IMG/VR virus record: IMGVR_UViG_3300009152_000050
Location: 1 to 62,942 of that record
From: a virus
Lineage: Duplodnaviria > Caudoviricetes
Strand: one strand, 5' to 3'
Length of the DNA: 62,942 bases
In this document: in pieces, positions 544-55,867 of the stretch
Layout: every line of letters begins with the position of its first letter
Position numbering within the stretch: position 1 is the stretch's first letter
The notes under the pieces: generated by a model
Told to the model about the DNA's origin: nothing
The model's database searches: none
Seen by the model: only the letters and a program-made list of their open reading frames with translations
Made by a program: the position numbers and the translations under genes

Positions 544-629
544 ACCTCTTTTCTTACCGTTCATCACTTTAAACTATTGGCCTATTGATTAAAATTATAC
601 TTTTACTTTTTATTAAATAACCGTTTAAA

Positions 630-1103
630 ATGTCAGGCGCAGACTATAACAGGCGCACAAAAAAAATGACTACTACAATAGAAAAACTTACAAAGTTTGT
701 GAATCAACGTCCGGGTCTTGATTTTTGTAATTACGGGGATGTTTCTGCATATCGTAGAGAGAGCGCAGAAATTACAAGAGATAGGGCAGATTTTTTTGAA
801 CTACTTTCTTTTGCTTTCCGTAGGATTGAAAATTTAGAAAATGTATTAAATGACTATTTACAAAAAAATTCAGGACGCTTATCTTTAGATGATAAAGGGA
901 ATATAGATTATTGTACTGGGCAATATTTTTGCACAGAATACCGTCCGGCAGCTAACAGGGTGTTATCTAACCTTATATGGGCATCGTATAGGGATGAGAT
1001 AGAATATAATAGCCCTAATAATGTATATGCAGACGGAAACGCAATACGCAAAGCAATAAAGCGCAATGTATCACGTAGAATAGCAAAAAATTATTTTAAT
1101 TAA
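630..1103 (+). CDS. Early hypothetical protein (start may be the later ATG, MTTTIEK)
   Basis: 157-aa ORF with normal composition. Confidence 0.75.
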   Translation: MSGADYNRRTKKMTTTIEKLTKFVNQRPGLDFCNYGDVSAYRRESAEITRDRADFFELLSFAFRRIENLENVLNDYLQKNSGRLSLDDKGNIDYCTGQYFCTEYRPAANRVLSNLIWASYRDEIEYNSPNNVYADGNAIRKAIKRNVSRRIAKNYFN

Positions 1104-1367
1104 TCTATAAATAAACGTTTATGAATCAGTCCGAAAAAATAGATATTTCTATATTAGTTGTTGGCTTTTTTCTTATCATTATTTTGTTAGCAATTAATTA
1201 ATCAGCAACATACAACATATTAAATAAAACAATAATAACCATTTAAATTAAACATCATGAAAAAATTATTAAATGCTTTCCGTTCATTCTTTACCTTACA
1301 GGGCTTTAATGCCTATAATTTGTAAAGGGAATTAGCTGCAAAGGTATAGCCAGACAATCGAATTGTA

Positions 1368-1793
1368 TTGCAGCTACTAAAATTATTTATTAATCATTTA
1401 TTAAACACTTTAGCAATGTTACAAATTACAAAAAACATCATTAATTATGAAGATCAAAATTATTCTCATGCAGTAAACTATTCAGGTAGTTTATATAATT
1501 ACCCTATGACTTTAAATTATGGGGATAAGCACAAGAGAACAAAATATATATTATCATCCTGCACACAAGATATTGTTGAATTATGGCAGGACGGTATTTA
1601 TATATATGTTTTAGGGCAAAATAATGGACTTTCTTATATCTCATTAATGGAGATTGATACTGAAAAAAAAGAAGTAGTTGGAGAGGTATTTTTAAATGAA
1701 CAGGACTGCACAAGTGAGGATAATTTTAGTTATGGAATATTAGAGATGATGAGCGAAGATCAAATTAAAATACTTTGCCAATATATTTATTAA
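1368..1793 (+). CDS. Early hypothetical protein (true start probably at MLQITK)
   Basis: ORF in the early block. Confidence 0.65.
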   Translation: MQLLKLFINHLLNTLAMLQITKNIINYEDQNYSHAVNYSGSLYNYPMTLNYGDKHKRTKYILSSCTQDIVELWQDGIYIYVLGQNNGLSYISLMEIDTEKKEVVGEVFLNEQDCTSEDNFSYGILEMMSEDQIKILCQYIY

Positions 1794-1878
1794 AAATAGC
1801 TAAAGTAAAGGGAAAGTATAGTTATATTAGTACCTTTCTTTTTTAAAATTATTAACTAACATATAAATATATATAAAA

Positions 1879-2067
1879 ATGAAATACTACTTAGTAACTT
1901 TAAAATTTGATTACGGCAAAATTAGGATATTAACAACGGCCGAAAATGAACAGGCAGCAAAGGAAAAAGTATGTGCGGCCGAAAAATGCCCTCTTACTGC
2001 TGTTATTAATATTCACCAACATTCAGGAGCAGGGTATATGATAGAAAAAATCATAAACGTTTATTAA
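1879..2067 (+). CDS. Small early hypothetical protein
   Basis: ATG ORF, tightly packed. Confidence 0.65.
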   Translation: MKYYLVTLKFDYGKIRILTTAENEQAAKEKVCAAEKCPLTAVINIHQHSGAGYMIEKIINVY

Positions 2068-2088
2068 TTACCATTAAACTATACTACA

Positions 2089-2310
2089 ATGAGATACCAA
2101 ATAAAAAGAGAATGTTGGAATGAAAAAACATACAATGGGTATGAAGATGCTCCTTATTGGAGGATTGAAATTAAAGGGTTAAGTTTTGGACTAAATGATA
2201 ATGGTAAATTATGGGCTATTGGTAACTATTATCAAATAAAAGACTATATTGAAGATGTAGAGAATATTATAAAAGAATGTAAATTACCTATAAAAATATT
2301 AACCAACTAA
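2089..2310 (+). CDS. Small early hypothetical protein
   Basis: ATG ORF preceded by AAACTATACTAC. Confidence 0.65.
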   Translation: MRYQIKRECWNEKTYNGYEDAPYWRIEIKGLSFGLNDNGKLWAIGNYYQIKDYIEDVENIIKECKLPIKILTN

Positions 2311-2322
2311 AACTATACTATA

Positions 2323-2622
2323 ATGACAAAGAAACAATTTACAGCCTATGAAATAAGTAAGGCAAAGGATAATAAAATGAAAATGTTGATTAAAGAAGCA
2401 TTAAACAGATATGATGCAGACGAATTATTGGGATTTTTGACAGAAATTACTACCGGCAATAGTGAAGAATATTTAAAGGATAAAATGGTAAGTGAATTAA
2501 CATTGGCAGGATATTGTATATTTAAGCCAGAAATGACTACACAAGCTGATAAGCTAAAGGAATATGCAGAAACATATATCTTTCCTTATTATAATGAACA
2601 ACAATCAGCAATTCTATTTTAA
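2323..2622 (+). CDS. Early hypothetical protein
   Basis: ATG ORF preceded by AAACTATACTAT. Confidence 0.7.
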   Translation: MTKKQFTAYEISKAKDNKMKMLIKEALNRYDADELLGFLTEITTGNSEEYLKDKMVSELTLAGYCIFKPEMTTQADKLKEYAETYIFPYYNEQQSAILF

Positions 2623-2644
2623 TAACATATTAAATATTAAAGCC

Positions 2645-2800
2645 ATGAGTACACTAACTCAAATTAAGGCATTACAGGCGAAATTAGACAGTCTACCAAA
2701 AAAGCAGTACTATACCTGCAAAGCTAAAATAAATGCCCTAATAAGGCAGGAACAACGCAAAGCGAAGCAGTATAGCTACTATGAATGGCTGGGAAGGTAA
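2645..2800 (+). CDS. Small basic early protein (MSTLTQ...)
   Basis: 3' part of ORF 2564-2800; ATG at 2645 follows the repeated AACATATTAAATA motif. Confidence 0.55.
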   Translation: MSTLTQIKALQAKLDSLPKKQYYTCKAKINALIRQEQRKAKQYSYYEWLGR

Positions 2801-2927
2801 ACATATTAGATAATTAAATAATAAACCAATGGAAAAGAAAAAAGAAAACCTATTCATAATACTACTTATCATTGTATGTGTAGTGTTAATGATGATCTAA
2901 ATTAATTAATCTTAAAAACTAAATAAC

Positions 2928-3116
2928 ATGAAAAAAGAATTAAAACAAGCAATCGTTAATTGCATATTTGAAAATGAAAAACAATTTCAACTTATTAACT
3001 ATGTAAAGACCCCCTTTCGGGGATACATATATACCAGTCAAGGTAATTACCTTATTGGGGGTGAGGAAGTAGGAGAATTTATTGATAATGCGATAAAACT
3101 ATTAATTAACCGATAA
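2928..3116 (+). CDS. Small early hypothetical protein
   Basis: ATG ORF. Confidence 0.65.
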   Translation: MKKELKQAIVNCIFENEKQFQLINYVKTPFRGYIYTSQGNYLIGGEEVGEFIDNAIKLLINR

Positions 3117-3127
3117 AACTAAACAAA

Positions 3128-3457
3128 ATGACAAAGTACATATTACAAGACACAGAAGCAGGTAACGTTATCAATGAATTTATTTATTTAACCGATGCAG
3201 AAAATTCATTAAAGGAATTTGAAGAAACGGATAAATTAAATGGTGAATATACTCCTGATTTTTACGAAATAAAGGAAGTAAGAGAACCGGCCACATTGTT
3301 AACTGAAAACCAAAAAATATCATTGCAGCAATTTATATTCGCTAACCTTCTTATGGCTGATGAGATAGGACTGGGAGAAGTAAATGAATGTAGAGATACA
3401 GCACAATTCATAGTTGAAGAATGGGCAAATGATAATAACATCACATTTATTGATTAA
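3128..3457 (+). CDS. Acidic early hypothetical protein
   Basis: 109 aa, strongly D/E-rich. Confidence 0.7.
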   Translation: MTKYILQDTEAGNVINEFIYLTDAENSLKEFEETDKLNGEYTPDFYEIKEVREPATLLTENQKISLQQFIFANLLMADEIGLGEVNECRDTAQFIVEEWANDNNITFID

Positions 3458-3476
3458 CATTTTAAAAATTAAAAAA

Positions 3477-3704
3477 ATGAAAGAGCAATTTGAAATACTA
3501 AAAGGTTGGGAAAATTACATTGATGACTTTTTTGCTATTACAGTCTATGATTCCTATTTGACAATGCTTGGGAATTATTCAACCGAAAAATATCATAAAT
3601 ATTTGTCATTAGGGTTCGTATTTAAAGCAGAGATTAATGAGCCGTATGTTATGCTTAATGCGACAAAAGATTCTATAAGAATAACTCTTAAAATAGATTT
3701 ATAA
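3477..3704 (+). CDS. Small early hypothetical protein
   Basis: Internal ATG (MKEQF) of ORF 3414-3704. Confidence 0.6.
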   Translation: MKEQFEILKGWENYIDDFFAITVYDSYLTMLGNYSTEKYHKYLSLGFVFKAEINEPYVMLNATKDSIRITLKIDL

Positions 3705-3866
3705 TCACTAAAAATCTAATCTCATGCTAACAATAATAATCTTATTCAATGGTACAGGGAAGTATAAAGATATGGTAAAGATGCTATGTATAGCTTTACT
3801 TTTTGATTTATGCTATATTTTACCTCTGCTTTAAGCGATTAATAACATATTAAATAATTAAATAAC

Positions 3867-4055
3867 ATGAAAGAAACGAATTATATTATCTCCCCTATCA
3901 GCACTTATGATGATGATTTAGAGATGTTTTCAACTAAGATAGGACAGAAGGGGAAAGATATGCCACTACTGTATAGTACATGGGGGAAAACAGAACAGGA
4001 AAGCAGGATAAGGGCTGAATTACTAATTGATAACCTTTTAAATTTTAAACTATGA
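3867..4055 (+). CDS. Small early hypothetical protein
   Basis: ATG ORF; ATGA overlap with the next gene. Confidence 0.65.
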   Translation: MKETNYIISPISTYDDDLEMFSTKIGQKGKDMPLLYSTWGKTEQESRIRAELLIDNLLNFKL

Positions 4056-4249
4056 TTTGCAAAGAATATGATGAATTAACGCCAATAGAAAAAACTATCT
4101 TCATAGGTGAATTAGTCCATGCAGCTATGAATGATAGCGACCTATTTAGAATTTGCCAAAAGGTAGTAGATACTGCCATTGTAAAGGGGTTGTTTAATGG
4201 AGTGCAAATGATTCCTGACCCTATTGATAACCAAATAATACCAGAATAA
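4052..4249 (+). CDS. Small hypothetical protein
   Basis: Translationally coupled on both sides. Confidence 0.65.
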   Translation: MICKEYDELTPIEKTIFIGELVHAAMNDSDLFRICQKVVDTAIVKGLFNGVQMIPDPIDNQIIPE

Positions 4250-4539
4250 TGAAAAACTCAACGTTTGGTTTGCTGTTAATATTATTTTTCCTTATCTTGT
4301 ATCAAAATTACAACATGATATTACTTTCAATATTAGGCAGCCTAATTGGTATAGCCTCTATATATGCTCTTATTTCAGTTCTTAATATTAAGCGAAGTGA
4401 TGCAAAAAAGAAAAAGCAATTAGCAGAACAGAACCGGCTATTCTTTCAAAGACTAAGGGATAACGAAAGGTACAATGAGTTGTCCGATCTAAAAGATTGG
4501 GATTTAAACCAATATGATGATACATTTTCAAGTAATTAA
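4249..4539 (+). CDS. Small membrane protein
   Basis: Hydrophobic N-terminal segments. Confidence 0.6.
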   Translation: MKNSTFGLLLILFFLILYQNYNMILLSILGSLIGIASIYALISVLNIKRSDAKKKKQLAEQNRLFFQRLRDNERYNELSDLKDWDLNQYDDTFSSN

Positions 4540-4556
4540 CCATTAAAAAATAAAAC

Positions 4557-4832
4557 ATGACAGACATTTTAGAAACACTTGCAAAAACGTTTGAGCCATT
4601 ACCTACAATGGAGTTAGCTGCTATATGGTTAGAAAAGCCAGTAGTAACTAATGAAGGTAAGACAGTAAGACTTACAAAAGGCCATCAAGTATTAGTAGTA
4701 GATAATGAATTAACTGATATGATAGATGACCCTTCCCATCAAGTACTAAAAGTATTCGGTAAAAGTAATAGCGATTTCAGTATTTTGTTAGTGGATTTGA
4801 TTACATTTGATTTATTAACCATAAACCTTTAA
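4557..4832 (+). CDS. Hypothetical protein
   Basis: ATG ORF. Confidence 0.65.
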   Translation: MTDILETLAKTFEPLPTMELAAIWLEKPVVTNEGKTVRLTKGHQVLVVDNELTDMIDDPSHQVLKVFGKSNSDFSILLVDLITFDLLTINL

Positions 4833-4835
4833 AAA

Positions 4836-5096
4836 ATGGAGATTACACACACAAACGTAGGAAGTCCTAAATTAGCAGTAGGATATAAAGCAAATGTAAG
4901 AAGCAATACTGCACCAGAAATTGCGGAAACATTCACAGATGATAATGGAGAAGTACAGTACATACTATGTAATGGTAATACACAACCTAAAATAGTATAT
5001 GATGCTCTATGGAATCCAATAAAAGGTAAAGTAAACCTAAACAAACTATATAAAGGAGAAAACCCTGATAGAACTAAGCTATGGTATAAGGGATAA
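4836..5096 (+). CDS. Hypothetical protein; its TAA stop forms the first TAAC core of the cassette array
   Basis: ...AAG GGA TAA C at 5094-5097. Confidence 0.7.
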   Translation: MEITHTNVGSPKLAVGYKANVRSNTAPEIAETFTDDNGEVQYILCNGNTQPKIVYDALWNPIKGKVNLNKLYKGENPDRTKLWYKG

Positions 5097-5122
5097 CGTT
5101 TTGCGTATATACGAGGTACGCC
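5094..5122 (+). repeat. Truncated attC-like site A (left arm only)
   Basis: TAACGTTTTGCGTATA resembles the site D left arm (TAACGGTTTGCGTATA); no right arm found. Confidence 0.55.
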
Positions 5123-5148
5123 TTAACGAAATTATAAATTATAAACAA

Positions 5149-5349
5149 ATGGGAGATTACAGTTTCGATTTAAGACCACTAATTTGGTTAGGTGCATTTA
5201 TCATCCTTGCAATTTGGGGATGTTGGGAGTTGATTGATTGGTTATGGATAGACGATGCCATTCGTAGCACCAAACCAATTATACCCGAAATAGAATTGAT
5301 TATAAAAAATAATGTTGTAGATACTGTCTATGTGTATCGTCAGCCTTAA
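5149..5349 (+). CDS. Cassette 1: small membrane protein
   Basis: ATG at 5149, one TM segment; followed by TGCTTATAAC. Confidence 0.6.
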   Translation: MGDYSFDLRPLIWLGAFIILAIWGCWELIDWLWIDDAIRSTKPIIPEIELIIKNNVVDTVYVYRQP

Positions 5350-5356
5350 TTGCTTA

Positions 5357-5434
5357 TAACGTTTTCGGGCTTAGCGAAGTGGCTTTTGTGCGTTGGCTTG
5401 TGTGTCGGAAAGCCATTTTGCCAAACCCGTGTTA
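5357..5434 (+). repeat. attC-like hairpin B
   Basis: TAAC-gtttt-CGGGCTTAGCGAAGTGGCTTT ... AAAGCCATTTTGCCAAACCCG-t-GTTA. Confidence 0.85.
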
Positions 5435-5505
5435 TATGAAGTGCCGACTTATTTACGATAAAGCTCAATTGGAATACTAAACAGAAAAACAAAAAGAAAA
5501 AAAAC

Positions 5506-5688
5506 GTGGGAAATTTAAAAGTAAAAATAATTGATACCAATGGATTAAGTGAAGAAACTATATCCAAGATTGAAGATACTATGATTTATTTAGGTATGGA
5601 GCAAGTAGATGAATGTATGTTCTGCAAAATAAAGAATAGTAAAAACGAAGTATTAATGATATTCCCAGAAAGAATAATAAAACTATAA
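5506..5688 (+). CDS. Cassette 2 ORF a, hypothetical
   Basis: GTG-start ORF closely coupled to the next ORF. Confidence 0.5.
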   Translation: MGNLKVKIIDTNGLSEETISKIEDTMIYLGMEQVDECMFCKIKNSKNEVLMIFPERIIKL

Positions 5689-5690
5689 AT

Positions 5691-5954
5691 ATGGAAAACA
5701 CATTAAGTTTATTTGATGATTTAGAAAACGAATGGCAAAAAGAATGGAAGGATATGCCAGAGTTTATAACAAATAACAAAAAACCTTATCAGCAAATTAT
5801 TGTGTCATTTAAAAATTTTGATGATGTAAAAGAATTTGCAAAGAGATTAGGTTTAAATGTTACACCTAAAACAGATGCTTTATGGTTTCCAATGAAGGAT
5901 AAAGAAAGTGGATTACATTATGTAAATGATAATTGGAGTAAAGATGAAAAATAA
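5691..5954 (+). CDS. Cassette 2 ORF b, small partner of the TAGT-like glycosyltransferase
   Basis: W..MPEF...F...DD...F......T.KT..LWFP pattern recalled from proteins next to phage base-modifying GTs. Confidence 0.55.
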   Translation: MENTLSLFDDLENEWQKEWKDMPEFITNNKKPYQQIIVSFKNFDDVKEFAKRLGLNVTPKTDALWFPMKDKESGLHYVNDNWSKDEK

Positions 5955-6789
5955 ATACCCAATATTTATACCGACAAAAGGAAGGTTTAAAACACCACAG
6001 ACTATCAATATGTTTAAATCACATAATGTTGATTTTAGAATTGTTATAGAAAAACAAGAGTATGAGCAGTATTCTAAAATTATAGACAAATCAAAAATAA
6101 TAGTTGTTCCTCACCAAAACGAAGGATTGACTGTTACAAGGAATTGGATATGGGATTTTGCAGAAAATGAAGGACACGAAAAATTCTGGACATTTGACGA
6201 TAATATTGGTAGGGTTTACAGATGGAACAATAACACAAGATACCAATGTAAGGATGGAACATATTTAAAAGTAATTGAAGATTTTGCAGATAGATATAAT
6301 AACCTACACATAATTGGTATGAACTATATGTGTTTTTGTAAAAGTGGTGATAACATACCTCCATACTACCCTAATACAAGGATTTATAGTAATATGCTTT
6401 TACCGACAAATGTAAAACTATCTAATGGTGAAAAACTAAGAAACAAGTTGTTTTATAACGATGATACAGACCTTTGTTTAAGAGTTTTAAAGGATGGACT
6501 ACCTACTATACAAATCAATGCTTTTTTAATAGACAAGAGCCAAACAATGACAGTAAAAGGAGGGATGACAGATTACTATTTAAGTGATGAATGTAAAGGC
6601 AGATTAACATTTGCTGAAGAATTACAAAAGGCACATCCAGACGTAACGACTATAACTCAAAAGTTTGGGAGGTGGCATCACCACGTTAATTATAAACCTT
6701 TTAGAAAAAATAAGTTAATCCCAAAAGAAGGACTTATAATAAAAAAACAAGTCAATGAATATGGAATGGAACTTAAAAAAACTATTTAA
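5944..6789 (+). CDS. Cassette 2 ORF c: TET-associated/GREB1-like glycosyltransferase (putative DNA base modification)
   Basis: YPIFIPTKGR, TRNWIWD, FDDNI, YNDDTDL.LRVLKDG, KGGMT and GRWHHHVNY motifs. Confidence 0.75.
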   Translation: MKNKYPIFIPTKGRFKTPQTINMFKSHNVDFRIVIEKQEYEQYSKIIDKSKIIVVPHQNEGLTVTRNWIWDFAENEGHEKFWTFDDNIGRVYRWNNNTRYQCKDGTYLKVIEDFADRYNNLHIIGMNYMCFCKSGDNIPPYYPNTRIYSNMLLPTNVKLSNGEKLRNKLFYNDDTDLCLRVLKDGLPTIQINAFLIDKSQTMTVKGGMTDYYLSDECKGRLTFAEELQKAHPDVTTITQKFGRWHHHVNYKPFRKNKLIPKEGLIIKKQVNEYGMELKKTI

Positions 6790-6864
6790 AAGTGCGTTGG
6801 CTTTTTTCTTTTTGTTTTTCCTTCACGGATTTTCAATTGGAAACGGTCAGCAAGGCATTTCATA

Positions 6865-6990
6865 TAACGTTTTCGGGCTTGGCGAAGGCGGGGAGTTTAA
6901 CCACAAAAGTTTAATAGAATGACAGAAGATAATATAACCACAAATGTTCAATTGGAAAACGGAAGCCCCGCTTTTGCCAAACCCGTGTTA
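6865..6990 (+). repeat. attC-like hairpin C (loop contains the MTase start codon)
   Basis: TAAC-gtttt-CGGGCTTGGCGAAGGCGGGG ... CCCCGCTTTTGCCAAACCCG-t-GTTA; arms nearly identical to site B. Confidence 0.88.
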
Positions 6991-7629
6991 TGTGCTGGTG
7001 CGGTTTCAAAAGACGGAATTTCGTTAATAAACGGAGATTGTTTGCAAGCCTTACGAGGCTATGGCGATAATCATTTTAAGATAGCAATAGTTGACCCACC
7101 TTATGGAATTAATGCAGGTAAAATGACAATGGGAAGCGGTAAGCACAAATTTAGCAAAGACAAAGATTGGGATAGTGCAATACCAAGCGAAGAGTATTTT
7201 ACCGAATTATTTAGGGTGTCTGAAAATCAAATTGTGTGGGGTGGCAATTACTTTACTGAATTTTTACCGCCTACACCACATTGGCTTTTATGGGATAAGA
7301 AAAACCCAAATTTGAGCTTTGCTGAAGGTGAGTTGGCTTGGGTGCGAAAAGGTAAAAACCTGCGGATATTTCAACACTATTCAGCACAAGTTGAAGAAGG
7401 CGGCAAAATACACCCGACACAAAAGCCTGTAAAATTATACAGGTGGATATTAAACAACTACACAAGCGAAGGGGATTTGATTTTAGACACCCATTTGGGA
7501 AGCGGGTCAATCGCCATAGCCTGCCATCAAATGAAACGAAATTTAATAGCCTATGAGATTGATGAAGAATACTACCGAAAGGCTTGCAAACGATTTGAAG
7601 AACAAACTCGTCAAACTGCACTATGGTAG
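6919..7629 (+). CDS. Cassette 3: DNA methyltransferase, N6A/N4C beta class
   Basis: DPPY, HPTQKP, and D.HLGSGS motif I. Confidence 0.92.
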   Translation: MTEDNITTNVQLENGSPAFAKPVLCAGAVSKDGISLINGDCLQALRGYGDNHFKIAIVDPPYGINAGKMTMGSGKHKFSKDKDWDSAIPSEEYFTELFRVSENQIVWGGNYFTEFLPPTPHWLLWDKKNPNLSFAEGELAWVRKGKNLRIFQHYSAQVEEGGKIHPTQKPVKLYRWILNNYTSEGDLILDTHLGSGSIAIACHQMKRNLIAYEIDEEYYRKACKRFEEQTRQTALW

Positions 7630-7639
7630 CACTTGCACA

Positions 7640-7688
7640 TAACGGTTTGCGTATAAAAAATCGTTTTAATGTTTTTTATACGCTGTTA
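7640..7688 (+). repeat. attC-like hairpin D (short)
   Basis: TAAC-ggttt-GCGTATAAAAAA ... TTTTTTATACGC-t-GTTA. Confidence 0.85.
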
Positions 7689-7717
7689 GGTGTCTGGTTT
7701 TATTTAAAATTTGAGCG

Positions 7718-8233
7718 ATGGAAAAAATTATATTCTTAGATATTGACGGCGTTTTAGCAACTCCAAAATATTTGAAAGATGGACAATGGGCTTTAAACCC
7801 AGAAAAACAAAAACTGTTAGGTGAAATACTTACCCAAACAGATGCTAAAATTGTTTTATCTTCTTCATGGAGGTATGCGACTTTAGAAAAAACAAAAGAA
7901 CACATGGAAGCGGAAGGATTTTTGTTTAACGATAAATTGATTGGTGTTACAATTAGAGCATACCAATGGCTTGAACGTGGAACAGGGATACACTTATCAA
8001 TTCCAAGAGGTGTAGAGATAAAACAATGGGTTGATACTCATATTCATTCTGATAATGGTAAAAATTGGGAACGAAAGAAATTAGGCAAGGATTTTACCTA
8101 TGTGATATTAGATGATGAAAGTGATATGCTTTTGGAACACAGAAATAATTTTGTGCATACTAAAAGTGAAATAGGATTGACAGATGATGATGTTAGGAGT
8201 GCGGTGGCAATTTTAAATAAAACTTGCACCTAA
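7718..8233 (+). CDS. Cassette 4: HAD-family phosphatase (Swiss Army Knife RNA-repair-type HAD)
   Basis: FLDIDGV, LSSSWR, RG.EI..W and YVILDD motifs; stop TAA lies within the TAAC core. Confidence 0.85.
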   Translation: MEKIIFLDIDGVLATPKYLKDGQWALNPEKQKLLGEILTQTDAKIVLSSSWRYATLEKTKEHMEAEGFLFNDKLIGVTIRAYQWLERGTGIHLSIPRGVEIKQWVDTHIHSDNGKNWERKKLGKDFTYVILDDESDMLLEHRNNFVHTKSEIGLTDDDVRSAVAILNKTCT

Positions 8234-8285
8234 CGGGTATATGTAAACATTCTTTATAACTAAATGATAATTAAATAATTATGTT
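8231..8285 (-). other. Putative attI-like site (non-hairpin) at the 5' end of the recombinase
   Basis: Bottom strand reads ...ATATACCC-GTTAGGT; no hairpin partner; similar to 55766-55845. Confidence 0.6.
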
Positions 8286-9119
8286 ATGAATATCGGAAAG
8301 TATATACAGTTGTATTCCGAAGATTTACGATTGAAAAATTATGCTGAATCTTCTATTTCCAATTATGTATCACAGGTTAAATGTTTTTTAGAGCATTTTT
8401 CTGATGTAGCTACAAAGCCTTCTGAAATAAACGAAAGGCAAATAAAACAATGGCTACTTTCCGCTAATTCTATTAATGGAAGAAGGCATAGATTATCAGC
8501 ATTAAAGCTATTCTATTCGCTTACAGGTAAACAGCCGTTAAAATTTAAGCACATAGAATATCCTCGGTCAGAAAAAAAATTACCAATCGTTCTGTCTGTG
8601 GAAGAAGTACAGAAAATGTTTTCAGCGTGTTCTAATACAAAACACAAGTTAATATTGGCTATTTTGTACTCTTGCGGATTACGGGTTAGTGAATTGATAA
8701 GCCTTAAATGGAATAACATTGACAGGAGCAGGATGGTAATAAATATTATTGGAGCAAAAGGGAATAAAGACCGTCAAGTACCGTTACCTGAAATACTTAT
8801 TCCTTTATTAGAAAAATACTGGTATAAATACAAAACTAAAACATACATTTTAGAGGGGCAATTTAAAGATGTATATAGCAGCAGAAGTGTACTTGAAGTA
8901 GTTAAACAATTAGCAGAAAAAGCAGGGTTAAGGAAAGATGTTTGGACGCACTTAATTCGTCATTGCTATGGAACGCATCAGGTGGAAAGTGGAGTTGACA
9001 TAAATCTCATACAGAAAATACTTGGGCATAGCAATGTTAAGACAACTAATATCTATTTACATACCTCACATAACTTAATATCTCGTATTCAATCACCTTT
9101 AAATAGTATTAATTTATGA
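8286..9119 (+). CDS. Tyrosine recombinase, integron-integrase-like (no obvious IntI-specific insertion)
   Basis: LP.VLS.EEV, GLRVSE, KGNKDR, HLIRH, LGH..VKTT.IY, C-terminal IQSPL; 277 aa. Confidence 0.93.
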   Translation: MNIGKYIQLYSEDLRLKNYAESSISNYVSQVKCFLEHFSDVATKPSEINERQIKQWLLSANSINGRRHRLSALKLFYSLTGKQPLKFKHIEYPRSEKKLPIVLSVEEVQKMFSACSNTKHKLILAILYSCGLRVSELISLKWNNIDRSRMVINIIGAKGNKDRQVPLPEILIPLLEKYWYKYKTKTYILEGQFKDVYSSRSVLEVVKQLAEKAGLRKDVWTHLIRHCYGTHQVESGVDINLIQKILGHSNVKTTNIYLHTSHNLISRIQSPLNSINL

Positions 9120-9565
9120 AGCGACTACTAATTTTATTGTTATTAACATCTAAGTTATCTTATAGTCAAAAGTGGTGGAATATAACTAAGAATGATTTAC
9201 TGATAGTGGGAGTAGGTTTTGTAGGAGGTGGTGCAGATGCTTATAATCAACGTATCTTACATCATAAGTACGGAGCAGGAAAGCCATTTTGGGATTACTC
9301 TACATCGTATAAAAGGAAATATAAAGATTTTGAGAATGGAGATTTAAGAGCAGCATATCCCGGCAGTAAGACATGGTTAGTAATGACTACTGATGGCTAC
9401 CACCTTACAAGAGCAGTAGATAGGTTTCATTCATTATTTACGATTGGTATAACTGCGTATGAATGGAATGAATATAAAGGATGGGATAGGGTACTATTTA
9501 TTAGTAAGAAAGTACTACTGTCTGGCGTTAGTAATAGAATTGCATTTAATTTAATCTACAAATAA
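9116..9565 (+). CDS. Secreted/membrane hypothetical protein
   Basis: Signal peptide ending YSQ; overlaps the recombinase stop. Confidence 0.7.
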   Translation: MKRLLILLLLTSKLSYSQKWWNITKNDLLIVGVGFVGGGADAYNQRILHHKYGAGKPFWDYSTSYKRKYKDFENGDLRAAYPGSKTWLVMTTDGYHLTRAVDRFHSLFTIGITAYEWNEYKGWDRVLFISKKVLLSGVSNRIAFNLIYK

Positions 9566-10763: not shown

Positions 10764-11630
10764 TTATAATTTTTCTTTACGTGCTTGTTTTGACATACTC
10801 ATTTTTAGCTTAGTTTCATCTGTGTGTTTCCTCCCTGTGGATAGTTTTCTGAAATACTCTCTATATTCTGCGGAACGTGGAGGCATCTTTGTTCCAGTAT
10901 GAGCCTTTATAATTTTTTTTCTGCCTCTTTCTTTTATATCGTTAGGATGTTCAAGTATAAATAACCCATCTCTTGACTTAATTGGAGATAATATATTACT
11001 CCTTGTTAAGAAATATCCAGACGGATGCAGCCTTCTATTTATATAGCGGCTCATAGTACTCATACTTGTGTTAAAATAGTCCGCAATAGCCTGTAATGAC
11101 TTACAAGTAGTAATTAATATACCTGTTGTAGAATATACGTATATAACGCCTTTGTAATTAGGATTGCCTACTCCTTGATAATTTTCTATACATAACTTTC
11201 TTGAATCTTCTATTTGTTTAAGTGTTTTTGCCCTACCCTTACTCTTTTCAGACATTTTTTTCTTAGTAGCCTCTGTATGCTTTTTGCCCGTCCATGCTCC
11301 TTTTTTATTTCTCTCTGCCAACTTTGGATTTTTAATACCAAGTACCCCATCCCCTCCTTTTGTAAGATTAGCGAGTGTACCTCCATCACAAGACCGACCA
11401 TATATCTCTATAAACTCTATTTCTTTCTGTTTAGCTGTATCATAAGGTATATCTTGGAAAAGAATTTGTACATCTATTGGAGTTTTATTATAAATAGCCA
11501 TCCAATATTTGTTCCTATGTCTTGGGTCGTGATTGTACGCACGTTCATAATTAGGACTATCTCTTTTAGATATTCCTATATAAAATACTTTATTAGTATC
11601 AACCCTTATATGCCTATATACGTATGCCAT
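10764..11630 (-). CDS. GIY-YIG homing endonuclease with NUMOD3 repeats
   Basis: YVYRH...FYIGI, NLTKGGDG, and GKKHTEATKKKMS / GRKHTDETKLKMS. Confidence 0.88.
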   Translation of the reverse strand: MAYVYRHIRVDTNKVFYIGISKRDSPNYERAYNHDPRHRNKYWMAIYNKTPIDVQILFQDIPYDTAKQKEIEFIEIYGRSCDGGTLANLTKGGDGVLGIKNPKLAERNKKGAWTGKKHTEATKKKMSEKSKGRAKTLKQIEDSRKLCIENYQGVGNPNYKGVIYVYSTTGILITTCKSLQAIADYFNTSMSTMSRYINRRLHPSGYFLTRSNILSPIKSRDGLFILEHPNDIKERGRKKIIKAHTGTKMPPRSAEYREYFRKLSTGRKHTDETKLKMSMSKQARKEKL

Positions 11631-12802
11631 TAAAATAAATGAGTTAATCTTGCTACTTGCCCATGTTCGGGATGATGTATAAAAGCTTCTACTGCTTTTG
11701 GTGCGTGGGCGTAACCATTTCTATGATGCCAACTATCCGTACCTGACGGACTTCTTAATACTTCTACACATACACTCATATAGTCTTTACTTATTTTATG
11801 GTGCAGATCGTGGATATAAAAGTATCTATGTTTGCAGTTATTCCAATCTTTACTTTCATGTGCCATCAATAATGCTAAATCAGTCTGCTTTGCACCATCA
11901 CCATGAGTAGTGCCTATTAGGTTATTATGATAAACATAATATTTCCTGTGTGCGGTTGTAGCATTAAATGTGCATCCTTTATTATTCCTAAACCATGCCT
12001 CTAATGTTTGTGCTAACATAAATCCACTAACATAATCATGGTTACTGGGGTCATATTGTATATGTACTGGTGCAACTGTTAATAACATTTCAATACAATC
12101 AACAAGTAATTTCTTAGCAATCATAAAGGCATCATACCACATTAACTCTGTGTCTTGTGGTGTTCCGCTTGTAGTTAGGCTTTTAGCATTATCTGTATGT
12201 AGAATATCATTACCTATTACAAATAATATTTTTTCAATAGGGAAACCTTTTGCTTTCTGTATCAATCCTGCTACCCCTGATTTAACTCTATCTATTGCTA
12301 TTTGATGATTATATTCATCCCCTGTTTCAAATGATTTGCATAACTTCCCAATATGGACATCTGCGGGGTCAACTACTAATAAATGACCATCCGTTATTTT
12401 TGGGTATTTTATTACAGGGTATTTAGGGGAGTACTTTTGTATATCTGCAATTATTCTGTCTTTTAATTCCCAAAGATTTACTTTCTTATTACCTACGTGA
12501 ATAGAGAAATGCTCTCCTTTATACCAATAGTGATTAACGTCTTGAATGGGAATACCTTTTGATTCACATTCTTCATTTAATGCTCTGTGTTCCCCTGCGT
12601 ATTCTTCTGTGATTGATAACCCTGCTTTACATCCTAAACTAACCTTGCTTTTATCTAATGCGCCCCCTTCTCTTAATCTTTGTATTGCTGTTTTTACTGC
12701 GTTGTAAGTACTATCTATTATTTCAGCATACTGCGTTTTTGAAAGATTAGGATTGATAGATATTTGTTCTAAAAGTTTCTTTTGTAATGGAGTTATTTTC
12801 AT
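11630..12802 (-). CDS. Calcineurin-like metallophosphoesterase with N-terminal HTH
   Basis: DVHIGK, GNDILH, SNHD, THGD and HDLHH motifs. Confidence 0.85.
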   Translation of the reverse strand: MKITPLQKKLLEQISINPNLSKTQYAEIIDSTYNAVKTAIQRLREGGALDKSKVSLGCKAGLSITEEYAGEHRALNEECESKGIPIQDVNHYWYKGEHFSIHVGNKKVNLWELKDRIIADIQKYSPKYPVIKYPKITDGHLLVVDPADVHIGKLCKSFETGDEYNHQIAIDRVKSGVAGLIQKAKGFPIEKILFVIGNDILHTDNAKSLTTSGTPQDTELMWYDAFMIAKKLLVDCIEMLLTVAPVHIQYDPSNHDYVSGFMLAQTLEAWFRNNKGCTFNATTAHRKYYVYHNNLIGTTHGDGAKQTDLALLMAHESKDWNNCKHRYFYIHDLHHKISKDYMSVCVEVLRSPSGTDSWHHRNGYAHAPKAVEAFIHHPEHGQVARLTHLF

Positions 12803-12824
12803 AATTACGTTTTATATTTTAGGG

Positions 12825-13412
12825 TTAAATTTTATGTAAACATTTTAAAAATTTCCTTCCGTAACCTGCAATTAATTCTTTTTTATCTGTTCCATTAATT
12901 ATTTTCCTTGCGCCCTCCCAATCCTCAACTTTTGATGTAAAGTACATTTCTAAGCACCTCCCTGTAAAATCTCCGAAAGAACTTGCGCCCTTAGTCATTC
13001 CTTCAAATAGTATTTTTGTAGCTACTTTAACGTCTAATGCAAATTCTGGATTACCTAATAAATCAATGCCTAATAGTCTGCCTATTAGGTCATAATTTTC
13101 GTACCATGTAAGTTGTACGTAGCCTCTGCCAAAATATAATTTATCGGGAATTGTGTATTTTATTCCACTATGCTTTATTTTCTTACCGTATGATCTGCCT
13201 TTCCCTTTACCATATTCTTCTATTGGGAGCATTGTGTTTGCAGTTTCGTGCTTAGTGGTTGCCAGTATGTAAGCTAACCATCTTAGGTCTGTATATCCTG
13301 CGCCATCCCAATAGTTAATGATTGCATCTATACTATCTATCTGTTTTTGATTTAGTTTATTTAGTAACCCTTGCTCTCTTGCAGTTTTATAGAAAAATTG
13401 TTTATCTACCAT
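12825..13412 (-). CDS. Endolysin, GH19/lysozyme-like
   Basis: YILAT..HET, YFGRGYVQLTWYENY, ARKIINGTD. Confidence 0.9.
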   Translation of the reverse strand: MVDKQFFYKTAREQGLLNKLNQKQIDSIDAIINYWDGAGYTDLRWLAYILATTKHETANTMLPIEEYGKGKGRSYGKKIKHSGIKYTIPDKLYFGRGYVQLTWYENYDLIGRLLGIDLLGNPEFALDVKVATKILFEGMTKGASSFGDFTGRCLEMYFTSKVEDWEGARKIINGTDKKELIAGYGRKFLKCLHKI

Positions 13413-13494
13413 AACTTTTTATTTTCTGATACCCATGCCAAGTAGTACCCCAATGCTATTGCTAATATACATAGGAGTAATTGAGGCATCGTTG

Positions 13495-13692
13495 CTATCC
13501 TTTAGGGTTGCCTCCTTGTTGGTTGTACTTGTGGGCTATGTAGGCTATTGCGCCTACTACTAATACTACTCCTAATCCTAAAAATAAAGTAGATAAATTA
13601 TTTGTATCAGCATAATATCCGAAAGCAGTAAAGATTGATACGAAGCCTAATAATCCAACTAAGGAGGTGAGTGTGAATTGCCATCTTTTCAT
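13495..13692 (-). CDS. Small two-TM membrane protein (lysis cassette)
   Basis: Two hydrophobic helices. Confidence 0.65.
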   Translation of the reverse strand: MKRWQFTLTSLVGLLGFVSIFTAFGYYADTNNLSTLFLGLGVVLVVGAIAYIAHKYNQQGGNPKG

Positions 13693-14201
13693 GGTTTTAT
13701 AATTTTAATTAATTTTATAATATACGGAATTGAAAGGCCTATTGATACAATGATAAGCCATTTTATCCACTTATTTTTCTTTTCTATTTTATTTTCTAAT
13801 GCCACAATCACTAAGTCCTTATCAGTCAATTTCTTAGTTAATTTATTTATTTTATCAGTATCTTCCGTTGTGATGATTTTTGTGATAGTATTTGTTACCA
13901 ATTCGGGAACTTTCACCTTAATATATACTGGAACTTTTACCGCTACCGATGTTTCAAAACTATCTATCCTATACTGTATTGTGTCAGGGCATTGTACGTC
14001 AATAGTCTTATATAAGGTGTCTATTGTCTTTACTGAATCCACTTTAATAGCAGTACATGGGTAGTCTTTCCTTACTAATTCAGCTACCTTTTCTTCATTC
14101 TTATCTTTGGCTTTATTGTATAATTCTGCTGCCGTTTTGCATGACGTTAAACATATTACACATACTACTGCAAGTATTAAATAAAATAAATTCTTATTCA
14201 T
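13689..14201 (-). CDS. Putative unimolecular spanin
   Basis: Lipobox LTSC plus C-terminal TM helix, inside the lysis cassette. Confidence 0.65.
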   Translation of the reverse strand: MNKNLFYLILAVVCVICLTSCKTAAELYNKAKDKNEEKVAELVRKDYPCTAIKVDSVKTIDTLYKTIDVQCPDTIQYRIDSFETSVAVKVPVYIKVKVPELVTNTITKIITTEDTDKINKLTKKLTDKDLVIVALENKIEKKNKWIKWLIIVSIGLSIPYIIKLIKIIKP

Positions 14202-14213
14202 ATTACGATTTTT

Positions 14214-14486
14214 TTAAGGTTTTTCGCCTGTCTTTACTTCTTCTACTGCATCTACAACATTTTCTACTGCTTCTTCGTCATTAACTCCAAATAGTTTTGA
14301 AAGTGTTTTTGTTGCTAACATTATGAACCCTATCCACATTGCATAATCTTCACCAGTAAGATGAAGTTTTGGTGCGAATAAATTTGCAAATGCCAATGCG
14401 CCCATAAAAAAATAGAGAAGTGTATCTCTAATATCTTTTACTCTTTGTGGAGTAGTTTTTCTCATTTGACTTAATCCGAATCCCAT
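14214..14486 (-). CDS. Putative holin
   Basis: Two TMs, charged tail, near the endolysin. Confidence 0.6.
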   Translation of the reverse strand: MGFGLSQMRKTTPQRVKDIRDTLLYFFMGALAFANLFAPKLHLTGEDYAMWIGFIMLATKTLSKLFGVNDEEAVENVVDAVEEVKTGEKP

Positions 14487-14491
14487 AACTT

Positions 14492-14713
14492 TTAATTTTT
14501 AAATGCTTTTAATAATTCTTCAAAATTGTTAGTAATCATTTTTTCCATTATATCAAAACGCTTGTTGTAATAAATATCTCTGCTCTCGTACTGATTTAAT
14601 AGTTTACCGAACTTTCTCATTATTGCGTTTACCCTTAATGTTATGTACACTATAAATAAAGCCAGTACTATCATACATATAGAGCCTACTAATACTAATT
14701 CATTAACTGTCAT
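14492..14713 (-). CDS. Small membrane protein
   Basis: N-terminal TM. Confidence 0.6.
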   Translation of the reverse strand: MTVNELVLVGSICMIVLALFIVYITLRVNAIMRKFGKLLNQYESRDIYYNKRFDIMEKMITNNFEELLKAFKN

Positions 14714-14982: not shown

Positions 14983-15061
14983 TCTATCAGGTTTAAAAGT
15001 ATAAGGTATCGTACGTCTTTTGTAAAGGTATAACTTATTTTTGTATTTAGCACTTATACCC

Positions 15062-16271: not shown

Positions 16272-16281
16272 ATTTTAATTT

Positions 16282-29119: not shown

Positions 29120-29151
29120 TTTTTTATTTATTTTAATATCCGAATTAAACT

Positions 29152-29718: not shown

Positions 29719-29738
29719 AATGATTTATTTTTATTATT

Positions 29739-54595: not shown

Positions 54596-54736
54596 ATGAA
54601 AAAATTATTCAGAAAAATTATTGCAATATACAATCGTTGTAGATACTGCGGAAGAACAATAGAAGATACTGGTGCTGGTTCTGAACCAAGACCTAATATG
54701 TGTGAAAGATGTTTTGAAAACGGAGGGGATGAATAA
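54596..54736 (+). CDS. Small zinc-finger protein (46 aa); its stop codon forms a TAAC core
   Basis: CRYC...CERC; GAA TAA C at 54734. Confidence 0.55.
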   Translation: MKKLFRKIIAIYNRCRYCGRTIEDTGAGSEPRPNMCERCFENGGDE

Positions 54737-54823
54737 CGAATGGTGCTATGAGCAGGTTTGCCTTGCAGAAATGTTCAAATTTAGCACAAATTTTATTGGC
54801 AAACTTGCTTATAGCACGTGTTA
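54734..54823 (+). repeat. attC-like hairpin F
   Basis: TAAC-gaatg-GTGCTATGAGCAGGTTTGCC ... GGCAAACTTGCTTATAGCAC-gt-GTTA. Confidence 0.85.
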
Positions 54824-54883
54824 TACGCTGGCACGGGTGATTTAGAAGAATGTTTAATTGGAATACGGTAAAAAAGAAAATAA

Positions 54884-55672
54884 ATGCGAAGCGAGGGGAA
54901 AATAGAATTGTTTAATGAGGACTGTATGCTAACTATGAAACGGATAGCATCAGGGACGGTTGATTTGATATTGACTGACCCGCCATATAACACAACGCAA
55001 TGTGAATGGGAATATGATATTGATTTAACGGCTTTATGGGCTGAATGGCAAAGGATATTGAAGCCCAATGGAGTAATATGTGTTTTTGCAGATGAACCAT
55101 TTACAAGCCGTTTAATCGTTTCAAAATTGGATTGGTTTAAAATTAGGATTACTTGGGATAAAATGACTGGCTCAAACTTTTTGAATGCTAAAAAAATGCC
55201 GTTAAAACAAACTGAAGATGTAGTAATTTTTTCAGGCGTTAAAAATGGGCAATACACTTACAACCCGATTTTAACTGATAAACCTAAACACAATATAAGA
55301 CCCGTTGGAAATAGAAAGCCAAGTGTAAATAATACTACATACGGACAACACAGCGGACAATATTCAGCGGATTACGACCCAACAAAGAACTATCCGACAA
55401 ACTTACTTTCAATAATGGCAAAGCAAGATGAATGTAATAGCGTGAACCGATGGCATCCAACTCAAAAACCTACAGAGATTATGCAATGGCTTGTAAAGAC
55501 ATTTAGCAACCAACACGAAATTGTTTTTGATGGATATAGTGGAAGCGGAGTAACTGCCATTGCTTGTGAAATTGAAAATAGAAACTTTATAGGAAGTGAA
55601 TTGAATGAGGAATATTACAAAAAAGCATTACAACGAATTAAAGATGAAACAGCACAACTTAAAATATTTTAA
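54884..55672 (+). CDS. DNA methyltransferase, N6A/N4C beta class (cassette cargo)
   Basis: TDPPY, HPTQKP, DGYSGSG. Confidence 0.92.
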   Translation: MRSEGKIELFNEDCMLTMKRIASGTVDLILTDPPYNTTQCEWEYDIDLTALWAEWQRILKPNGVICVFADEPFTSRLIVSKLDWFKIRITWDKMTGSNFLNAKKMPLKQTEDVVIFSGVKNGQYTYNPILTDKPKHNIRPVGNRKPSVNNTTYGQHSGQYSADYDPTKNYPTNLLSIMAKQDECNSVNRWHPTQKPTEIMQWLVKTFSNQHEIVFDGYSGSGVTAIACEIENRNFIGSELNEEYYKKALQRIKDETAQLKIF

Positions 55673-55867
55673 TGGTTTTGAAAAAACCAACAGAAGCGTG
55701 GGGCATTTATTTTCTTTTTTACTTCCACAAAAGTTCAATTGGAACACGGATGTAGTGCTTGCGTATAACATAAAATATGTACGTTTCCTTTGTAATTAAT
55801 TAATTTAAAGCTACTTATGATATGTTTCCTGAACGTATCGGTAGTCTTATTCAGTAAACTATAAACT

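Follow-up and report, generated by a model that had tools for sequence, protein, structure and literature searches.

A candidate integron-like platform in a tailed-phage genome: cassette ends that pair over 15 bp with a fixed G-T mispair

The locus and the survey set

The IMG/VR record IMGVR_UViG_3300009152_000050 (Duplodnaviria; Caudoviricetes) is a virus genome of 62,942 bases, which has inverted terminal repeats and is rated complete. This whole stretch is referred to as the window. Small genes on the + strand are found at 0.6-10 kb and 54-63 kb, with a big block of - strand genes between them. In the left group, a row of four cassettes, the first of which is decayed, leads up to the gene for a tyrosine recombinase. 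A solo cassette is located in the right group. The junctions have the form AAC, 5-nt spacer, imperfect stem, loop, stem, 1-2 nt, GTT. On the downstream side of cassette 4 there is no hairpin; GGGTATATGTAAAC, the beginning of an attI-like site, is found there instead. We report that the start and the end of a cassette are complementary to each other over 15 bp, with a G-T mispair at a fixed position. The phage genome probably carries an integron-like platform, in which an excised cassette would rebuild a long site of folded DNA with two G-T-marked arms.

Relatives of the recombinase were collected from viral sequences. Out of 155 candidate stretches, at least 126 contain such a relative, and 80 loci were kept (loci are cited by their L numbers in our set where they must be told apart). 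The hairpin survey covers the window and 82 viral loci (83 sources, 1.17 Mb); L019 (23% identity) and two duplicates of the window (L001, L002) were left out. The hairpin finder requires AAC, a spacer of 4-6 nt, a stem with an ungapped score of at least 9.5, 0-3 nt and then GTT. In the 83 sources, it returned 158 hairpins on the recombinase strand versus 35 on the other strand, and many of these 35 are the same palindromic sites. The distance from AAC to GTT ranges from 39 to about 146 nt. One match in the window (40525-40581), which is located within a structural gene, was discarded as a likely chance match. When positions 5000-9200 were searched against isolated phages, DNA relatives were found for the methylase genes only, in phages of Flavobacterium, Nonlabens and Tenacibaculum.

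Pairing of the cassette ends

The original prediction held that the two ends of each cassette are complementary, with sequences that differ between cassettes and co-vary within each. The eight end strings on which it was built are all present in the window (5431/6868, 6987/7643, 7685/8234 and 54820/55769), and the complementarity is as claimed for cassette 2 (14/15) and cassette 3 (13/15); it is 13/15 for the solo cassette. In cassette 4, 8 bp are followed by a bubble of 4 versus 3 nt (TCTG/TTG) and then by 15 bp. In the following, the start arm is GTT plus 12 nt and the end arm is 12 nt plus AAC; positions are counted from the triplet. The whole window was also scanned blindly for complementary start and end arms, 100-3500 nt apart, with G at position 11 opposite T and at most one other mismatch. 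Exactly three ungapped pairs were found on the + strand and none on the - strand, while 20 mononucleotide shuffles of the window gave a mean of 0.1 matches.

For the survey set, cassette limits were set only by consecutive hairpins 40-4000 nt apart and are independent of end complementarity. Of the 94 intervals obtained, 23 were duplicates, and their removal left 71 unique ones. The GTT plus 12 nt after one hairpin was compared with the reverse complement of the 12 nt plus AAC before the next. At least 9 of the 12 variable positions match without gaps in 42/71 unique cassettes, versus 25/4968 (0.5%) non-cognate combinations of starts and ends; the mean number of matches is 7.99 for cognate and 4.19 for non-cognate pairs. 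Co-variation within a cassette is thus much stronger than between the ends of different cassettes, as had been predicted. Eight further cassettes pair with a one-base bulge, the extra base being on the start side in seven of them; the bulged arm is typically N9-TCG-N4 opposite N9-CA-N4. Among the remaining 21 intervals, 13 contain within them a partner for one end or for both, which corresponds to a junction missed by the finder.

The 42 ungapped cassettes define the arm precisely. At positions 5-9 and 12-15, the match frequency is 0.88-1.00 (non-cognate: 0.25-0.51); all four bases are used at these positions, and the partners still match. From position 16 on, it drops to 0.12-0.33, which is the null level (0.22-0.27 for non-cognate pairs). 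The outer arm is thus exactly 15 bp long, with a sharp stop at base 15. Position 11 is G in the start arm opposite T in the end arm, both read on the + strand, in 41/42 cassettes. Position 10 is A-T, or T-T in 13/42. A recurrent bubble of CTGG opposite CTTG about 9-11 nt from the core had been noticed in the window and proposed as a recognition determinant. A mispair at a fixed position is indeed conserved, but the invariant part is the single G-T at position 11 and not the CTGG/CTTG bubble. Its fixed distance, and the same polarity in the inner stem (see below), fit a role in recognition or strand choice.

Compensatory changes were looked for among homologous cassettes, but that search gave no usable class-I pairs. 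A segment of L013 (6421-7442) was considered as an orthologue of cassette 3 from the window with compensatory arm changes and was dropped, because the resemblance is limited to the arms.

About 50 nt inward from the two cassette ends, leader and tail pair in a second helix of 15-21 bp, which exceeds the 99th percentile of non-cognate pairs (score 14, n=1122) in 7/34 cassettes. In cassette 3, it is formed by 7035-7052 with 7579-7596, both strands being within the methylase coding sequence. As a side observation, a TTCAATTGGAA-like word occurs on the + strand of the window at 5464, 6832, 6947, 54853 and 55734. Leader and tail of cassette 2 each contain it, as do those of the solo cassette and the loop of the second junction hairpin (J2), all in one orientation. 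The word itself is not enriched (6 matches versus 3.19 expected by chance). Its placement between arm and second helix recurs, however, and a similar pair is present in L013 (6421-7442).

Limits of the mobile unit

In the original prediction, a unit started at GTT. This is not the case: identical copies include the upstream hairpin, so that the cassettes as first noted are units minus their hairpin. Three copies in a single array (L022) are 100% identical, and identity extends from the G after AAC to the next ...AACG. A cassette that is identical in L059 and L061 has the same limits, AAC|G to the next ...AACG; in both cases, the sequences outside these limits differ. Within the span, the order is hairpin, start arm, gene and end arm. 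Cassette pairs with homologous cargo agree with this. Among 39 such pairs, both hairpins are shared in 24, only the upstream hairpin in 11 (not all independent, as L059 and L062 are near copies, and so are L061 and L063), only the downstream hairpin in none and neither in four. As read from these limits of identity, the mobile unit is hairpin plus gene plus end arm, with an exchange point within AACG, i.e. at a resolution of 4 nt. The unit boundaries, together with the hairpin that is reconstituted when the ends are joined, point to an excised circle.

The inner stem

A G in the 5' arm opposite a T in the 3' arm also occurs in the inner stem, in 84/118 unique hairpins. In 79 of these 84, it is located 17-19 nt after AAC, with 4-8 pairs beyond it. 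Among 245 stem mispairs (ungapped scoring), 134 are G-T in this polarity versus 11 in the reversed one. A bulged T is present in the TCG/CA class and in the short-loop class of hairpins, for which stem scoring was ungapped as well. The short-loop hairpins (loop TCGTTTTAATG, as in J3) show the same TCG/..TG arrangement as the bulged class of outer arms. In both the outer and the inner arm, the strand leading away from the AAC/GTT junction in the 5' to 3' direction is the one with the G of the G-T mispair, which gives the arrangement a rough two-fold symmetry.

The base after AAC on the + strand is G in 90% of 120 hairpins. On the other strand, AAC would be followed by A, since T precedes GTT in 88%. 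For classical attC sites, the base after AAC on the recombined bottom strand is reported to be G in most cases (Bouvier 2009, PMC2727003). If the usual rule for cleavage applies here (arm located 5' of the cut), unit boundaries at end arm-AA|C would also indicate the + strand.

The attI-like sites

The junction of the cassette row with the recombinase gene is conserved. AAC followed by a TAyTATATGTA-like motif (scored as AAC, 2-6 nt and TATGTA with at most one mismatch) is present upstream of the recombinase gene in 64/66 unique upstream regions, mostly 51-52 nt before the ATG; in the window, it is on the same strand as the gene, which starts 52 nt after the AAC. A variant of the motif is ATAAAATATGTA. 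The 15 nt before this AAC are similar to the end arm of a cassette, and position 11 is T in 63/64. Four loci (L052, L057, L059, L060) share an identical leader of 67 nt, and four different last cassettes meet it. Because of this, the attI-like site is likely to be the insertion site for new units.

The solo cassette of the window ends at 55769 against a variant of the motif (ATAAAATATGTACG), which is followed by a leader like that of other loci. At the homologous place in L011 (8340-8480, minus strand), there are at least two cassettes, versus one in the window. Taken together, this makes the solo cassette a one-cassette array at a second attI-like site. The region 55770-55857 gives the impression of a second platform that has lost its recombinase gene by deletion. 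An ORF (open reading frame) of 28 aa (MNVSEHMTVFIQEMKRRNYSQNTSNIII), encoded at the corresponding place in L011, resembles by eye the N-terminus of the recombinase.

The recombinase

The best family match of the 277-aa recombinase is the NCBIfam model XerA_Arch (NF040815) with 199.5 bits, which is below its cut-off of 220. The match to PF00589 has 124 bits. The integron-integrase model TIGR02249 scores 167.6 bits (cut-off 265); only profile positions 5-179 and 244-314 are matched, and 180-243 remain unmatched. The alignment to IntI4 (2a3v) has the same gap: query residues 11-177 align to 10-179 of the chain and 201-273 to 245-318, so that 65 IntI4 residues (180-244) face 23 residues of the recombinase. 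The unmatched IntI4 stretch is the location of the IntI-specific I2 region (Messier and Roy 2001; MacDonald et al. 2006; both cited in PMC7790495 and PMC9668308). As judged from these alignments, the recombinase is devoid of the I2 region, near patch III. The residues R133, K158, H222, R225, H248 and Y257 are invariant in 16 family sequences and, by alignment to XerA and IntI4, are predicted to be the catalytic R-K-H-R-H-Y set. The closest solved structures are those of archaeal XerA (4a8e, 5hxy). Among 50,697 phage records, no relative of the recombinase from an isolated phage exceeds 34% identity.

A quick tree was computed from 96 proteins, with support values from the Shimodaira-Hasegawa-like approximate likelihood ratio test (SH-aLRT) only and a midpoint root used for drawing only; L182, proteins outside 240-340 aa and all but 14 of the phage proteins were left out. 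A branch with an SH-aLRT support of 99% separates 62 other Xer-like proteins from a side made up of the phage proteins, 11 bona fide IntI and four cellular proteins associated with arrays. On the IntI side, the proteins without I2 form a group (92) beside IntI plus L094 (87).

Arrays in cellular genomes

The only close relative from a cellular genome (59%) is encoded on a phage-like contig (L086), which has three hairpins and two cassettes with pairing ends. More distant relatives (34-40% identity) adjoin arrays in Pedobacter glucosidilyticus DSM 23534 (L092), Fusibacter sp. 3D3 (L093) and a Crocinitomicaceae metagenome-assembled genome (L089). The recombinases of these three likewise skip the IntI region. 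In L089, there is only one hairpin, at the contig edge. The cassette ends of Pedobacter and Fusibacter obey the rule of 15 bp with a G-T mispair (e.g. GTTAGGCACAGTTAT versus GTTAGGCACAATTAT); in Pedobacter, 4/6 consecutive hairpin intervals show the 15-nt pairing, and a site AAC|TAGTAAATAT adjoins the recombinase gene. Both arrays contain near-identical hairpins. The one from Pedobacter (10860-16903) has a recombinase gene that points towards it, and the one from Fusibacter (11077-18289) has repeated units of roughly 220 nt.

The Pedobacter array has the classical layout, with one gene per cassette, each gene being followed by its hairpin, reading away from attI. Its cassette genes are on the strand opposite to the wobble strand. 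In the phage arrays, the co-inherited hairpin is upstream of the gene (11 cases versus 0) and genes read towards attI. Relative to site polarity, the genes of the phage arrays are therefore inverted.

Features of the window and its surroundings

The features of the window are listed in Table 1. For the decayed cassette 1, no right hairpin arm and no GTT start arm was found in the window. None of 10 proteins scanned (cassette proteins and their neighbours) is a transposase. Upstream of the array, at 600-5100, there is a long row of small ORFs on the + strand, in which no hairpins or pairing ends were detected.

Table 1. Cassettes, sites and recombinase gene in the window (positions in the window; J1 to J3 and JS1 are junction hairpins).
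Feature	Position	Strand	Remark
Cassette 1 junction hairpin remnant (AAC, GTTTT spacer, left stem arm only)	5095..5122	+	left arm like full hairpins in L036, L074
Cassette 1 end arm (12+AAC, T at position 11)	5346..5360	+	no surviving start arm
J1 hairpin, part of cassette 2 (AAC, 5-nt spacer, imperfect 21-bp stem, loop, 1 nt, GTT)	5358..5433	+	
Cassette 2 start arm (GTT+12, G at position 11)	5431..5445	+	
Cassette 2 second helix, leader strand	5484..5502	+	pairs with 6802-6820; score 19
Cassette 2 cargo: ORFs of 60 and 87 aa and TET-associated glycosyltransferase (5926-6789)	5506..6789	+	PF20691, 110 bits
Cassette 2 second helix, tail strand	6802..6820	+	
Cassette 2 end arm (12+AAC, T at position 11)	6854..6868	+	14/15 with 5431-5445
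J2 hairpin, part of cassette 3, long-loop class	6866..6989	+	AAC-GTT gap 118 nt
Cassette 3 start arm	6987..7001	+	
Cassette 3 cargo: N6/N4 DNA methyltransferase	6919..7629	+	listed ORF start inside J2; true start may be later
Cassette 3 end arm	7629..7643	+	13/15 with 6987-7001 (T-T at 10, G-T at 11)
J3 hairpin, part of cassette 4, short class	7641..7687	+	12-bp stem, loop TCGTTTTAATG
Cassette 4 start arm (8 bp, TCTG bubble, 15 bp)	7685..7711	+	
Cassette 4 cargo: HAD_SAK_2 domain protein	7718..8233	+	PF18143, 84.6 bits
Cassette 4 end arm	8209..8234	+	abuts attI-like site
attI-like site and leader (GGGTATATGTAAAC... to start codon)	8235..8285	+	
Tyrosine recombinase, 277 aa, Xer/IntI-like	8286..9119	+	without IntI-specific region
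JS1 hairpin of solo cassette	54735..54822	+	
Solo cassette start arm	54820..54834	+	
Solo cassette second helix, leader strand	54867..54887	+	pairs with 55703-55723; score 21
Solo cassette cargo: N6/N4 DNA methyltransferase	54884..55672	+	
Solo cassette second helix, tail strand	55703..55723	+	
Solo cassette end arm	55755..55769	+	13/15 with 54820-54834
Second attI-like site (ATAAAATATGTACG), leader and stub of roughly 40 nt like the recombinase 5' end	55770..55857	+	homologous site in L011; remnant judged by eye

In 18/83 viral sources, no more than 600 nt of the contig are left upstream of the recombinase gene, which suggests that assemblies break within the array as populations differ in cassette content. 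The assembled contigs of four metagenome runs (X2, X3, X4, X7) were compared with the window at a likeness setting of 90. Contigs from the wastewater and lake runs X3, X4 and X7 pile up at 5253-5554 and 6763-6913, which covers hairpins and the leader and tail of cassette 2 but not its cargo. The joints within such contigs (e.g. 5504 to 6783) have sides of fewer than 30 letters at this likeness and may stem from other organisms. A contig of 1677 nt from X4 matches only 7682-8236 (cassette 4), both of its flanks being unlike the window.

Comparison with known systems

The phage loci share several traits with classical integrons (attC and cassette anatomy as given in PMC2727003). A tyrosine recombinase gene is adjacent to a conserved, putative insertion site at the end of a row of one-orientation cassettes, and the unit boundary is at an AAC/GTT triplet. 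As in attC sites, imperfect hairpins of very variable length are bounded by AAC and GTT, with G after AAC on one strand, and the first bases of a cassette pair with those before its own AAC. There are, however, clear differences. The phage recombinase is devoid of the IntI-specific region. When scored without gaps, irregularities of the phage stems appear mostly as G-T mispairs, whereas classical sites have two or three extrahelical bases, and the phage spacer is asymmetric (5 nt versus 1-2 nt). The phage hairpin precedes its gene, genes read towards attI, and the host of the system is a phage genome.

As a classical control, we analyzed 12 regions beside genes that pass the IntI cut-off (L187-L198), from 74 positive among 201 genomes searched; two genomes flagged as unpublished were excluded, and a gapped attC finder was used, with 4/12 regions giving 0-1 sites. 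In 50 consecutive attC pairs, the match frequency is 0.70-1.0 at positions 1-8 and 0.32-0.54 at positions 9-12 (null: 0.23-0.33), with the null level reached from position 13. No position has a fixed mispair. The original prediction had contrasted much longer outer arms with the 7-bp R box of attC. Arms of 15 bp are indeed found in the phage cassettes, versus about 8 (to 12) bp in the control, but the contrast in length is one of degree, as classical cassettes often pair over 8-12 bp. What sets the phage system apart from this control is the fixed length of 15 bp together with the G-T mispair at bp 11. In the classical arrays L187-L198, cognate end pairing was often seen to extend over 9-12 bp, frequently ending in ...TCAN / ...CAT.

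Integrase-less attC clusters (CALINs) are reported from phages by Qi et al. 2023 (PMC9892861), including Polaribacter phage P12002L, and one attC of this phage is described there as being recombined by IntI1 in E. coli; we do not equate it with any particular hairpin found here. Hairpins of the same kind occur in P12002L (NC_028924; L166) between the DNA methyltransferase genes, on the strand that carries these genes (29150-32300 and 38880-39244, minus strand). Its methylase gene at 31326-32126 is framed by GTTGTATGTCTGGTGC / GCACTTGCATACAAC, with 16/15-nt pairing and a TCTG bubble as in cassette 4 of the window. Unlike the virus of the window, P12002L has no relative of this recombinase in the phage-record search. 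It is an isolated virulent phage, and its other junctions look decayed. The parts of PMC9892861 considered here make no mention of long arms, a fixed mispair or a recombinase without I2. In the openly accessible literature, supplements aside, we found no recombinase without I2 tied to attC-like arrays and no 15-bp arms with a fixed mispair. No match was obtained for the DUF1874 motif, which PMC5737381 mentions as being similar to attC.

The I2 region is described as conferring single-strand recombination, as occurring in no other protein and as lacking intermediates (Escudero et al. 2020, PMC7790495); similarly, IntI is defined by an additional domain in Ghaly et al. 2022 (PMC9668308). The former article also discusses folded DNA of the CTX phage as a substrate of Xer, and likewise integrative mobile elements exploiting Xer (IMEX). 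In these cases, and as proposed here, an enzyme devoid of I2 acts on a hairpin whose two arms and imperfect centre imitate a duplex site. The phage sites, with long arms that are almost completely paired and a bulge at the centre, would be in keeping with this proposed likeness. Unlike the CTX phage and IMEX, the phage element brings a recombinase of its own, and exchangeable cassettes are lined up in rows at its attI-like site. Compared with a Xer/dif site (two arms of ~11 bp, centre of 6-8 bp), the folded phage site has two long arms and a centre made of AAC/GTT plus bulge. No dif-like consensus was identified in the phage sites, and their arm sequences are not conserved. Archaeal XerA is the best family match, but the phage proteins group with array-associated cellular proteins and IntI.

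Proposed mechanism and alternative explanations

We consider an integron-like platform, with a folded site rebuilt upon excision, to be the probable explanation. Each unit would consist of the junction hairpin (C/G after AAC), GTT with the 12-nt start arm, the cargo and a 12-nt end arm ending in AA(C). Units would be exchanged by crossover inside the conserved AAC(G), and new ones would enter the attI-like site directly upstream of the recombinase gene. Upon excision and closure, end arm and start arm would flank the unit's own hairpin and produce one long folded site. It would have an outer arm of 15 bp, an asymmetric bulge (5 nt versus 1-2 nt), an inner arm of ~18-22 bp and a variable loop. 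A G-T mispair would be present in both arms (at bp 11 in the outer one and 17-19 nt after AAC in the inner one), accompanied in some cases by an adjacent T-T or by a bulged T. The AAC-G strand, which is the + strand here, is predicted to fold in vivo as single-stranded or extruded DNA. One recombinase monomer may bind each nearly duplex arm, as Xer enzymes do on the arms of dif. Mispairs and bulge would mark the productive strand and block the second strand exchange, taking the role that extrahelical bases and the I2 helix have in classical integrons. Catalysis would then be limited to one exchange at AA|C with the attI-like site, and replication would resolve the product, as it does in integrons.

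Several observations count against this explanation. The arrays do not account for excision: at junctions standing in an array, the outer arm is formed by the ends of two different cassettes and pairs little beyond GTTA/TAAC (mean 4.19/12). Folding energies of reconstituted sites (DNA parameters) favour the + strand, which is more stable in 40/42, with means of -25.9 versus -21.8 kcal/mol, but such a gap between strands follows almost by definition from G-T versus C-A mispairs. The cognate site is more stable than the junction standing in the array by 7.9 kcal/mol (42/42), a comparison which is biased because only the 42 units preselected for pairing ends were folded. Exchange does not always seem to occur at AAC, as the same stems are found with other loops or other GTT-side flanks in contigs from other metagenomes (contigs only, with weak joints). 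Hairpin stems of the same type also precede unrelated cargo (J1 and J2 of the window). The hairpin sample is shaped by the template of the finder (AAC, GTT, ungapped stems), and among the 21/71 intervals with unpaired ends there are 8 without a sign of a missed junction. Pairing beyond 7 bp is not confined to the phage system, as it is seen in classical IntI arrays too. Finally, no circle, excision product or recombination junction was seen in the data, which are assembled contigs and contain no raw reads.

Other explanations have to be weighed against the same evidence. The sites could be ordinary duplex DNA sites, in which G at position 11 of the start and A at the mirrored position of the end belong to two half-sites that set direction, and co-variation is a by-product of cassette creation. 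This would suit a Xer-like recombinase without I2, given that the literature ties I2 to single-strand recombination (PMC7790495), and there are few conserved bases (TAAC, G after AAC, T/G at position 11). However, nine arm positions vary freely between cassettes and match within one, which a duplex model does not predict; nor does it fit with the sharp stop of pairing at 15 bp and the same mispair polarity in the inner stem (134 versus 11). We consider it unlikely. Even less weight is given to a role at the RNA level, in which hairpins are processing or termination signals, pairing of cistron ends stabilizes or regulates the message and G-T stands for G-U. The wobble-compatible strand is the sense strand of all phage cassette ORFs, hairpins stand between genes, and the second leader/tail helix found in 7/34 cassettes would also suit a transcript. 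In Pedobacter, however, the rule holds on the strand antisense to the cassette ORFs, which speaks against reading the G-T pairs at the RNA level. Identical units end exactly at AAC, and a conserved AAC-attI site is located beside the recombinase gene in 64/66 loci; no Rfam family matches (a scan of 4900-8400 with expect values up to 1 gave a single irrelevant match, a plant snoRNA, at 0.95). As the explanation of the pairing, a role in RNA is quite improbable; it may exist in addition to a role in DNA.

The segment from GTT to AAC could also be viewed as a small element of the transposon type, with the 15-bp arms as its terminal inverted repeats and hairpins as the targets into which a transposase inserts it. 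Its ends are inverted repeats, and the units carry single accessory genes. What distinguishes it from a transposon with terminal inverted repeats or a miniature inverted-repeat transposable element is that no transposase is among the 10 proteins scanned, that the upstream hairpin is part of identical copies, whose limit is AAC and not GTT, and that copies are found only in oriented rows. These are always in one orientation and end at a conserved site beside a tyrosine recombinase gene, and no target duplication was seen; such an element is highly improbable. Chance or common descent, i.e. coincidental ends or inherited copies of one repeat, has a practically negligible probability and was rejected on the basis of the non-cognate comparison and the shuffled-window scan. 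Many loci are close relatives, and nearly a quarter of the intervals (23/94) had to be removed as duplicates, but all four bases occur at the variable arm positions with partners that still match. Only 0.5% of non-cognate pairs reach 9/12, and shuffled windows give 0.1 matches versus 3.

Implications

The integron field treats I2 as the feature that enables recombination of folded attC sites and notes that intermediates are missing (PMC7790495 and PMC9668308). Here, at least 126 viral contigs and at least two bacterial genomes encode a relative without I2 beside a conserved attI-like site and rows of attC-like hairpins. It is a candidate for hairpin recombination without I2, on sites whose structure is governed by another, very regular rule. 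For mutagenesis, the G-T fixed at bp 11 of the 15-bp arm offers a simple handle.

It is conceivable, if somewhat short of an even chance, that recombinases without I2 and their sites represent a sister or early form of the integron, which recombines folded single-stranded hairpins without an I2 helix, via long, G-T-marked, duplex-like arms, much as Xer does on folded phage DNA. If true, recombination of hairpin cassettes would predate I2 or be independent of it. A cognate enzyme, overlooked by current integron finders, would then exist for many of the attC clusters that count as "integrase-less" in Bacteroidota, some Firmicutes and phages. The finding may explain some of the clusters classified as CALINs. 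It also points to phages that shuffle DNA-modification genes (methyltransferases, a glycosyltransferase) as cassettes. Phages would then own a working gene-capture platform for anti-restriction genes.

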